Positions 28,203 to 59,807 of a DNA stretch of 64,000 bases are shown in pieces. The notes under the pieces are model-generated. The model was not told the origin of the DNA. It worked only from the letters and a program-made list of their open reading frames with translations, and ran no database searches. The position numbers and the translations under genes were made by a program. The DNA is from a virus (Duplodnaviria > Caudoviricetes), in the IMG/VR virus record IMGVR_UViG_3300017716_001697, positions 128,001 through 192,000 of that record. One strand, 5' to 3'. Position 1 is the stretch's first letter; each line of letters opens with the position of its first letter.

Positions 28203-28493
28203 ATGAAAATACTTAAAATACTCGATGACTCGCTAAAAGATAACGCCACCGGACAATATTCACATGCACGTATAATTGCTATGTTGGTTGCATTCGCTGC
28301 TACAATTTTTATGTGGAAGCTTATTGTATTGGGTGGTATGAATATTGAATACTTTATCAGCTACCTTGCATATGGCACTGGCGCACAAACACTAAACAAA
28401 TTCTTAGATAACAGAGATCCTACACGCCCTGCAGTCGCTATACCGAAACCTGCTGTGGTTGATGAACTACCACCGAAACCGCCAAAACCTTAA
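28203..28493 (+). CDS. small membrane protein, possible holin
   Basis: 1-2 hydrophobic segments, Pro/Lys-rich C-terminus, late promoter. Confidence 0.5.
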   Translation: MKILKILDDSLKDNATGQYSHARIIAMLVAFAATIFMWKLIVLGGMNIEYFISYLAYGTGAQTLNKFLDNRDPTRPAVAIPKPAVVDELPPKPPKP

Positions 28494-29669: not shown

Positions 29670-30259
29670 TGCGTTTATTTGAACTTATCTGTGAGAGTAG
29701 GAGTGCAGATTTGTATCACGGTACAAATATGACAAAATTGACAAGAATGTTGCACGATAATGTCTTGGTTGCACAAACACCAATTCATAATGAGAACATT
29801 CCGAAAGAATTCAAAGGATTGACGCGTACTGTTTCTTTAACAAGAAACGCTGGCATGGCTACTAATTTCGCAAGAAGTAAAGCAGGTGGCGAGCAAGGTA
29901 TTGACTCGATCCCTGTTGTTATTGTGTTAGACCAAGATAAATTACACAGAAAATTAGGTAGGCGCATTAGGCCGTATAACGATCTAGCTTCACTTGCTCA
30001 TTCAACTGAACGAGCAGCAGGTGGCGGCGAATACGAAGAAGTTGTATTTGGTAGCATAAACGATATAAATTCGTATATAAAGAATATAGTTGTTCACATT
30101 AACCCAAATGTGAAGAAAGAAAATATAAAAGATTTTAACAAGGCTAAGATGGTATTCGATGATCCACGTACCGTTGTTGTAGATTTTCTTAATAAGAATC
30201 TCACAGGCAAACAGTTTATGCAACTGACAGCACCAAAACAAGATGTTCCACCTATATAA
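29669..30259 (+). CDS. putative ADP-ribosyltransferase-fold protein
   Basis: LYHGT strand 1, VSLTRN...A.NFA, distal EYEEVV. Confidence 0.5.
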   Translation: MRLFELICESRSADLYHGTNMTKLTRMLHDNVLVAQTPIHNENIPKEFKGLTRTVSLTRNAGMATNFARSKAGGEQGIDSIPVVIVLDQDKLHRKLGRRIRPYNDLASLAHSTERAAGGGEYEEVVFGSINDINSYIKNIVVHINPNVKKENIKDFNKAKMVFDDPRTVVVDFLNKNLTGKQFMQLTAPKQDVPPI

Positions 30260-30812
30260 ACTATCAGCAATTATAGCCACCACCTTATTAGTTGGGTGTG
30301 GCACATTAGGCACAGCACCAGTTGCCCCTGATGCAGAAATACTCAAGAGTGTACCGACGAGATCCATTGTGCTCGAAACTCAGGCATTGCTGCCGCATGC
30401 CGAAATGGCTATGTCAGCAATGCCTTCCGAACCAATTGTTGAAAGAGTTGAGGTCACCGGGAGTAGATTATCATCGGAGTCTGTCAAGTCATTCATACCT
30501 ACAACCAAGAAAGCAGTTAAAGTAATTAAGGCCGTGAAGGATGCATTAGCTGACGAGACAGCACCTACCGCACCACCTAGCACAGCACCTACCGCTACAC
30601 CAACCGCACCCGGTCCTACTCCGCGCCCCGCACAGACAGGTGCTAAACTACAGGTATTAGGTATAGATTTAGAGTTCTGGGTAGGTAACGATGACAACTG
30701 GAGTACAGTTTGGAAATTAATTGTCCTTGTGCTATTTGTATATGGTGGATTACGATTTATCAACCTAATAGTGACATACCTCGGTTCAATAACTTTAAGA
30801 ACACAATCATGA
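30243..30812 (+). CDS. lipoprotein with TonB-box-like segment, Pro-rich linker and C-terminal TM helix
   Basis: Lipobox LVG-C; [11 protein letters not shown]; [18 protein letters not shown]; hydrophobic C-terminus. Confidence 0.65.
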
Positions 30813-31132
30813 TAACAATAACAGAAACAGCAGCAACAAGAATAATCGGCATATTGGCAGAAGAAAATAGCCCTACATCGAGATTAAGAATGTTTGTGCA
30901 GGGTGGCGGGTGTAGTGGATTCTCTTATGGATTTACAATAGATAATGTTGTTAACGAAGACGACACTGCGATCAACGAAAGCAATGTTCCGATAGTAATT
31001 GATTCGATGAGCTATCAGTACCTTGTAGGATGTACCCTTGACTACGAAGAAACATTAATGAATTCCCAATTTGTTATTAAAAATCCCAACAGCAGTTCCA
31101 CATGTGGTTGTGGTTCGAGTTTCTCAGTATAA
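30809..31132 (+). CDS. erpA: A-type Fe-S carrier (ErpA/IscA, HesB family)
   Basis: [17 protein letters not shown] and CGCGSSF; start at 30809. Confidence 0.93.
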
Positions 31133-59072: not shown

Positions 59073-59807
59073 ATGAAAACAGTATCCATTCTTCTAGCAT
59101 CATTGCTAGTATTAGCAGGCTGTGCTAATACCGAATATTCACAATATGTCGAAGCACAGTCGAAAATTGAAGCACAGATTGCAACAGTTAAATCGAACGA
59201 AGCAGTAGCAAGATACAATGCCGAGGCGGCAAAATACAAGGCAATGGCTGATATCGCAGCATCGGGCACCGAAAGTGCAAAAGTTGCCGCAGTAATGGCA
59301 TTGGCGCTAGGTGGCCAACAAAATTCGGCACCAGTGACTGCACCACGTACACAATTGCAAGCACCACCACCAAACCAAGCCTTGGCCTGGGCTAGCGTAT
59401 TAGTACCTAGTACCGTTCAATTGTTTGGTATAGCAGCTAATGCTCGTGTCGCTATGTCGCAGAGCGACAATGCTAGAGATGTTGCATTATCCACTAACAA
59501 TACATTCGCAGGGATGGGCAATAGTATCCAAGCTGCAGGCACTGCAGGGTTAACATCTACAGAGAATGTGGCAATCGCCGGTTTAACATCTAATCAAACA
59601 ATCGCTAATTATGGGTTGACGGCAACGCAGAACACGGCTACAGCCGGCTTGACAGCAACGCAGAATACGGCAACAGCTGGTTTGGCTGCAACACAGGCAG
59701 TAGCAACAACTGGAATGTCATCGTTAGTGACTGTGGCTAATGCACCACCTCAAACTGCTAAGATTTGCTCTGTTAATCCAGTCACAAGTGTAATGACTTG
59801 TAATTAA
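59073..59807 (+). CDS. lipoprotein with 11-residue repeats
   Basis: GGAG RBS; lipobox LAG-C; (T/I)AGLT(A/S)TQNTA-type repeats. Confidence 0.8.
   Translation: MKTVSILLASLLVLAGCANTEYSQYVEAQSKIEAQIATVKSNEAVARYNAEAAKYKAMADIAASGTESAKVAAVMALALGGQQNSAPVTAPRTQLQAPPPNQALAWASVLVPSTVQLFGIAANARVAMSQSDNARDVALSTNNTFAGMGNSIQAAGTAGLTSTENVAIAGLTSNQTIANYGLTATQNTATAGLTATQNTATAGLAATQAVATTGMSSLVTVANAPPQTAKICSVNPVTSVMTCN

Follow-up and report, generated by a model that had tools for sequence, protein, structure and literature searches.

A jumbo phage lipoprotein that carries a TonB-box segment between two predicted membrane anchors: a possible decoy for host TonB

The gene described here lies in a window of 64,000 nucleotides (the whole stretch of DNA that was analysed), which is part of a complete virus genome of 364,576 bp with terminal repeats and a GC content of 41.6%, recorded from a freshwater metagenome. 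The phage is a jumbo T4-like virus, and its kinship to the Pseudomonas PA5oct group, judged at the DNA polymerase locus, is only distant. An earlier note, made from the letters of the window, had reported an open reading frame for a lipoprotein with a C-terminal transmembrane (TM) helix, and this frame is real, with its start (M-x-x-x-[HY]-K-[LI]-S) kept in the homologues (Table 1). The TGA stop codon of the gene overlaps the ATG of an IscA-like Fe-S carrier gene (ATGA), which indicates translational coupling, and dsbA and then a family B DNA polymerase gene follow downstream. On the other side, the frame that runs into the start of the target gave no match above threshold in a Pfam scan, and its slot is filled by differing genes in related contigs; the target is preceded, at a distance of 2.1 kb, by a 1073-aa tail-fibre gene. 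This synteny was stable down to a family member of 19% identity, in the order tail fibre, small membrane protein, protein of ~130 aa, variable slot, target, sometimes IscA, dsbA and DNA polymerase. The IscA-like gene also adjoins the most distant family member (L135) and is absent beside closer relatives. The order of the two small membrane proteins of 96 and 137 aa was kept in all related contigs, a function search with them gave only a weak match to phrog_1322 ('membrane protein'), and the 96-aa protein was dropped as a holin candidate with no supporting match. A sigma-70/terminator scan and a T4 late-promoter search gave no timing for the expression of the target gene, and no RNA dataset with the target was listed among the sequencing runs, of which only the probable source sample contained it in full. 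Elsewhere in the window, positions 59073-59807 encode a predicted lipoprotein of 244 aa with no Pfam or PHROG match; its lipobox is LAGC, and its mature part is rich in Ala, Lys and Glu and resembles a coiled coil.

Table 1. Target gene, parts of its product, neighbouring genes and spanin candidates; coordinates are those of the window unless the genome is named
Feature	Coordinates	Strand	Description or basis
96-aa membrane protein	28203..28493	+	Directly 3' of the 1073-aa tail-fibre gene; same place in related contigs
137-aa protein with C-terminal hydrophobic segment	28588-29001		Near the tail-fibre gene
Upstream ORF, 196 aa	29669..30259	+	17-nt overlap with the target start
Target gene	30243..30812	+	189-aa lipoprotein with C-terminal TM
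Lipoprotein signal peptide, residues 1-19	30243..30299	+	Lipobox L-V-G-C; AF2 helix 3-17
Linker before the box, residues 20-66	30300..30440	+	Fast-evolving, predicted disordered (pLDDT <50 over 20-62)
TonB box ERVEVTGSR, residues 67-75	30441..30467	+	Identity with receptor consensus; purifying selection
Cationic amphipathic helix, residues 85-103	30495..30551	+	KKxVKVxKAVKxAL; family-wide
Pro/Thr/Ala-rich spacer, residues 104-131	30552..30635	+	AF2, composition
Predicted beta-hairpin, residues 132-147	30636..30683	+	AF2, alignment
C-terminal TM helix, ~residues 153-178	30699..30776	+	Hydropathy, alignment, AF2
IscA-like Fe-S carrier gene	30809..31132	+	Pfam Fe-S_biosyn, E = 1e-18
i-spanin candidate	genome 29346-29783		145 aa, N-terminal TM, coiled coil
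o-spanin candidate	genome 29773-30045		90-aa Cys-containing lipoprotein

The layout of the product was derived from hydropathy, the family alignment and an AF2 model (mean pLDDT 59), all of which agreed. At its N-terminus lies the lipobox proposed before, with Cys19 followed by Gly20 at +2; Gly18 and Cys19 do not vary among the 16 aligned relatives, none of which has Asp at +2. Gly at this position predicts targeting to the outer membrane. At the other end, the C-terminal TM helix was borne out by a hydropathy peak of 2.36 at residues 159-177 and by an AF2 helix over residues 153-188. Its invariant residues are K158, Y167-G168-G169 and I173-N174, and the tail past it is basic in the homologues, which by the positive-inside rule would make it cytoplasmic. 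No Cys is present in residues 20-152. These signals suggest a topology with the lipid anchor in the outer membrane, the helix in the inner membrane and ~133 Cys-free, mostly disordered residues across the periplasm. The disordered linker extends over residues 20-84 overall, and the stretch that had been likened to a TonB box (30438-30470) corresponds to residues 66-76, with the core ERVEVTGSR at 67-75. This core lies ~48 residues from the outer-membrane lipid anchor, in a segment of pLDDT <50 to which AF2 assigned no structure, and it is predicted to be exposed in the periplasm. It is followed by the amphipathic helix (net charge +4, hydrophobic moment ~0.5), by a spacer that is as rich in Pro and Thr as had been described (9 Pro, 7 Thr and 6 Ala per 28 residues) and by the hairpin, which forms the best-conserved part of the family together with the Trp-rich membrane-adjacent stretch that reaches to residue 152.

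To identify the box, we scanned 185,579 species, one genome each, for DNA encoding E-R-V-E-V-T-G-x-x. In 61 of 80 loci among the matches listed, the downstream frame was homologous to the plug domain of TonB-dependent receptors, and in these receptor loci the motif was located 30-200 residues from the start of a long frame, right behind the signal peptide; Plug and the TonB_dep_Rec barrel were confirmed by Pfam in three of the receptors. Across the 61 loci, again among the matches listed, the consensus was [LIV]-E-R-V-E-V-T-G-S-[RS]-I-[KR]-R, and the phage segment ERVEVTGSR agrees with it at 9 of 9 positions, which upholds the resemblance to a TonB box that had been proposed, with the caveat that the host's own dialect may differ. 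A Pseudoalteromonas receptor (L053) was identical to the phage box region at 10 of 10 positions. The remaining 19 of the 80 listed matches fell outside the plug-verified receptor set, and one of these (L067) looks like another receptor subtype. Carriers among the matches listed were mostly freshwater Burkholderiales (Roseateles, Pelomonas, Paucibacter, Inhella, Rubrivivax, Ideonella), with further carriers in Pseudoalteromonas, Shewanella (Alteromonadales) and Lysobacterales. Single bacterial genomes held 4-6 such boxes, compared to 0 for a reversed-pattern control, and an exchange of V for I was also present among the boxes within single genomes. The dialect LERVEVTGS[RS]IKR was concentrated in the Roseateles/Pelomonas/Paucibacter/Inhella group with several copies per genome, as counted among the matches listed, in which taxon shares are not quantitative. 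The 364.6-kb phage genome contains the pattern once, and 2.9 million IMG/VR contigs outside this genome contained it once, in a cytoplasmic protein, as a chance match. A search of the phage genome for homologues of TonB, ExbB or Plug found none. Co-folding of target residues 45-95 with the TonB C-terminal domain from the ExbB-ExbD-TonB operon of Pseudoalteromonas rhizosphaerae gave ipSAE values of 0.00 and 0.01 in runs without controls, and these values count neither way.

Relatives of the protein were sought by two word-indexed searches and one exhaustive HMMER search, which yielded a family of ~20 relatives, all metagenomic. Seventeen members were full-length (16 in the alignment A2, and P0023, inspected separately). 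In A2 the cationic helix is kept in kind, and the hairpin and TM are very strongly conserved; the database entry for one member (P0004) was called too short, and its true start brings back the lipobox. Two distant relatives of 112-121 aa (P0018 and P0020; loci L131-L134) hold the same hairpin/TM module with an N-terminal TM in place of the lipobox, which implies that the module can work with both ends in the inner membrane. No relatives were found in IMG/VR or JGI metagenome contigs, nor in GenBank phages by tblastn. The target itself had no match in Pfam and nothing above noise in NCBIfam and PADLOC; a PHROGs scan returned only a weak signal-peptide match (phrog_10987, E = 0.007), neither the family profile nor the box segment brought up a meaningful match in the PDB by sequence, and an ESM Atlas look-up returned only generic lipoprotein clusters, below 0.9. 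A word search for longer proteins that share the box region produced 8 candidates, none of them scoring. The protein belongs to a small, previously undescribed family of predicted envelope-spanning proteins with a fixed position in a jumbo T4-like phage lineage.

Whether the segment VTGSR is conserved in homologues had been put forward by the earlier note as a check on the whole idea, and the outcome was divided, with conservation under purifying selection in the four closest homologues and absence from the other 13 full-length members. In the four, the box reads E-[RK]-[VI]-E-[VI]-T-G-S-R, and in the three motif-bearing relatives of the target it has the form EK[VI]EITGSR. Pairwise comparisons in a codon alignment of the four box-bearing genes gave 14 identical, 31 synonymous and 9 non-synonymous counts for the box (residues 67-75), the non-synonymous ones being all R/K or V/I, compared to 54, 52 and 152 for the linker before it (residues 20-66) and 10, 11 and 33 for the linker after it (residues 76-84). 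The flanks together thus held 63 synonymous versus 185 non-synonymous changes, and the difference between box and flanks had a Fisher P = 3.9e-10, which is indicative only, as the pairs are not independent. The synonymous to non-synonymous ratio of the box was close to those of the hairpin (58:6) and the TM (54:14). Invariant residues made up 6 of the 9 box positions but 8 of the other 56 linker positions (P = 0.002), and the box was the only conserved island ahead of the amphipathic helix. These codon comparisons show purifying selection on the box within this group of four. In the other 13 of the 17 full-length members, a TonB box was missing even when the loose pattern [IVLM]-x-[IV]-[TSV]-[AG] was applied, and only the lipobox, helix, hairpin and TM were retained. 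The core function of the family therefore cannot be TonB mimicry, and the restriction of the box to one subclade marks it as a derived addition to an older scaffold, whose original function is independent of the box. Since the scaffold is kept without the box, it must have some other task, which the box, too, could serve.

One candidate for such a function is lysis. The main alternative raised before was a unimolecular spanin (u-spanin), and in this reading the protein would be a u-spanin-like lysis protein or an outer-membrane disruptor, in which the box is a structural strand unrelated to TonB. The part of this proposal that stood is the layout, as the target and T1 gp11 have in common a lipobox, a Cys-free periplasmic chain, a membrane-adjacent Trp, a C-terminal TM and a basic tail, and the lack of periplasmic Cys is among the described features of the T1 gp11 u-spanin (PMC6139136). 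The cationic amphipathic helix, present throughout the family, and the Trp-rich hairpin have a membrane-active look; the scaffold persists in members that lack the box and keeps a fixed genomic position, and lysis genes are scattered in this genome, with a GH108 endolysin alone at genome 330936-331523. However, a canonical i-/o-spanin pair of overlapped genes is already present (genome 29346-30045). Its 90-aa lipoprotein matched the PHROG 'Rz-like spanin' (E = 3e-5), with Pfam LysC below threshold, and has 116 phage homologues, one of which is annotated as an outer-membrane spanin component in Xanthomonas phage Rb1, where it stands in a lysis cassette, beside a DUF2570 protein and downstream of the endolysin. 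A survey of spanins put every phage under one spanin type only (PMC6139136), and given the two-component pair a second, unimolecular spanin is therefore not needed. Moreover, an hhalign comparison with T1 gp11 gave a probability of 2% and aligned only the lipobox, no spanin PHROG matched the target, and the periplasmic part is predicted to be mostly disordered and not beta-rich (disorder, one helix and one hairpin in the AF2 model, at a mean pLDDT of only 59). The distant relatives P0018 and P0020 lack the lipobox, having the N-terminal TM instead, and the 9 of 9 match to the receptor motif is left unexplained. The target sits between the tail-fibre gene and dsbA/DNA polymerase, outside any lysis cassette. 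With the two-component spanin elsewhere and no homology to T1 gp11, the u-spanin proposal is weakened, and we consider it unlikely. The spanin pair (locus L008, 1346-2045) stands alone, far from the endolysin. A Phage_lysozyme match elsewhere in the genome was set aside, as it lies inside an 829-aa virion-type protein, and a search of the phage genome for SLT and Rz (PF03245) found neither.

The scaffold may also have another envelope function, such as exclusion of incoming DNA or regulation via an inner-membrane partner, with the likeness to a TonB box coincidental and its residues kept for an unrelated contact. That conservation is strongest in the hairpin and TM, with K158, YGG and IN, suggests a specific intramembrane contact, and the 19 of 80 listed matches outside the receptor set mean that the peptide arises by chance. 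A coincidence would nevertheless have to account for an exact identity of 9-10 residues to the receptor consensus, for its occurrence in the right compartment within a disordered stretch near the outer-membrane anchor, and for the rarity of the pattern in viral DNA. It would also have to account for the fact that only the conservative exchanges R/K and V/I are seen in the box, the latter being found within single bacterial genomes too. We therefore hold this explanation to be rather improbable, while giving it some weight.

The box identity and the selection on it are in keeping with a double-membrane-anchored phage protein with an authentic TonB box, which would titrate host TonB or harness its pulling force, and we rate this reading at only slightly short of an even chance. 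Its more specific form, a doubly anchored periplasmic TonB-box decoy, is our tentative preference and a plausible one, at somewhat less than even probability. The localisation, the binding of TonB and the physiological outcome are steps that we infer as follows. The protein would be exported by Sec and then lipidated at Cys19; with Gly at +2, its N-terminus would go to the inner leaflet of the outer membrane, while the C-terminal helix would stay in the inner membrane with the short tail in the cytoplasm. ERVEVTGSR would then be displayed ~48 residues below the outer-membrane anchor, where the C-terminal domain of host TonB could bind the box strand by beta-augmentation, as it does with a ligand-loaded receptor. 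Being always exposed, the box would compete with receptors for the limited TonB pool. The outcome would be a shutdown of TonB-dependent uptake in the infected cell, with exclusion of TonB-dependent phages and bacteriocins and a stop to receptor-mediated import as the consequence. The amphipathic helix, hairpin and TM module are older than the box and would carry the role that the family had at first, independently of TonB, e.g., anchoring, oligomerising or docking on an inner-membrane partner.

Several observations count for a decoy. The phage comes from a freshwater sample, and the dialect of its box occurs mostly in receptors of freshwater Burkholderiales; the pattern is rare in viral DNA, and the box is probably accessible in its disordered segment. 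TonB boxes lie within disordered regions in group B colicins and pyocins as well, and T5 Llp and Cor, two exclusion lipoproteins, have their genes close to those for receptor binding; the target gene is found 2.1 kb downstream of the long tail-fibre gene. In Pseudomonas aeruginosa, growth is inhibited by TonB-box peptides that are brought into the periplasm (Peukert et al. 2022, PMC9841981). Against a decoy, the second membrane anchor and the strongly conserved hairpin and TM would be needless for a simple one, the place that the gene keeps throughout the lineage would suit a core function better than an add-on exclusion gene, and no TonB, ExbB or Plug domain is encoded by the phage as a further tie. 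The second anchor would be better explained by a hijack of TonB, in which the box recruits energised TonB, and pulling driven by the proton-motive force stretches or switches the hairpin-TM module or lets the protein sense the energy state of the membrane. This variant draws on the same box-identity and selection evidence as the decoy, and force transmission would make sense of both the double anchoring and the conserved inner-membrane module. However, it is purely inferential, most relatives work without a box, and a TonB client of such a kind inside the cell has no precedent that we know of; we consider it very unlikely.

TonB drives the import of iron, vitamin B12 and many carbohydrates, and many phages and bacteriocins enter by way of it. 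Full-text literature searches for a phage-encoded TonB box or a TonB decoy found no paper on either. If a reading as decoy or hijacker is true, no natural inhibitor or client of TonB would have preceded this protein in acting by molecular mimicry from inside the infected cell, and it would represent a new strategy of host takeover or exclusion, in which the docking tag of all receptors is mimicked and not one receptor. It would also offer a natural template for TonB inhibition, and the mimicked box dialect could serve as a host clue for uncultured phages, here pointing to freshwater Burkholderiales. Takeover or exclusion by mimicry and a u-spanin-like topology are known kinds; the protein family itself is undescribed.

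Compared with known systems, the target has the same box sequence as TonB-dependent receptors, [LIV]ERVEVTGS[RS]I, but differs from them in having no plug or barrel after the box (no Pfam match) and in reading L-S-S after it instead of I-[KR]-R. In group B colicins and pyocins the box likewise lies in a disordered stretch, whereas the target is made by the phage inside the cell and is predicted to be anchored in both membranes. It resembles T1 gp11 in its outer-membrane lipoprotein signal, in the Cys-free chain and in the short basic tail that follows a C-terminal TM; in contrast to T1 gp11, it is longer (189 aa versus 133), mostly disordered and without homology to it, and its genome has a two-component spanin as well. 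T5 Llp and Cor, lipoproteins of the outer membrane that phages encode, are directed at TonB-dependent uptake. Both act on one receptor, FhuA, and have neither a TM anchor nor a TonB box, and no homology of the target to them appeared in the PHROGs scan. The genome also encodes, at 199462-199704 (locus L009, 1462-1704), another lipoprotein of 80 aa with a C-terminal TM and a weak PHROG match to Cor (E = 5e-4), and, with ~29 aa, its periplasmic part seems too short to reach across the envelope. Finally, synthetic TonB-box inhibitors (PMC9841981) work on the same principle, in that a free periplasmic box competes for TonB; these are man-made siderophore conjugates, whereas the target would be a natural, genetically encoded and membrane-tethered counterpart.
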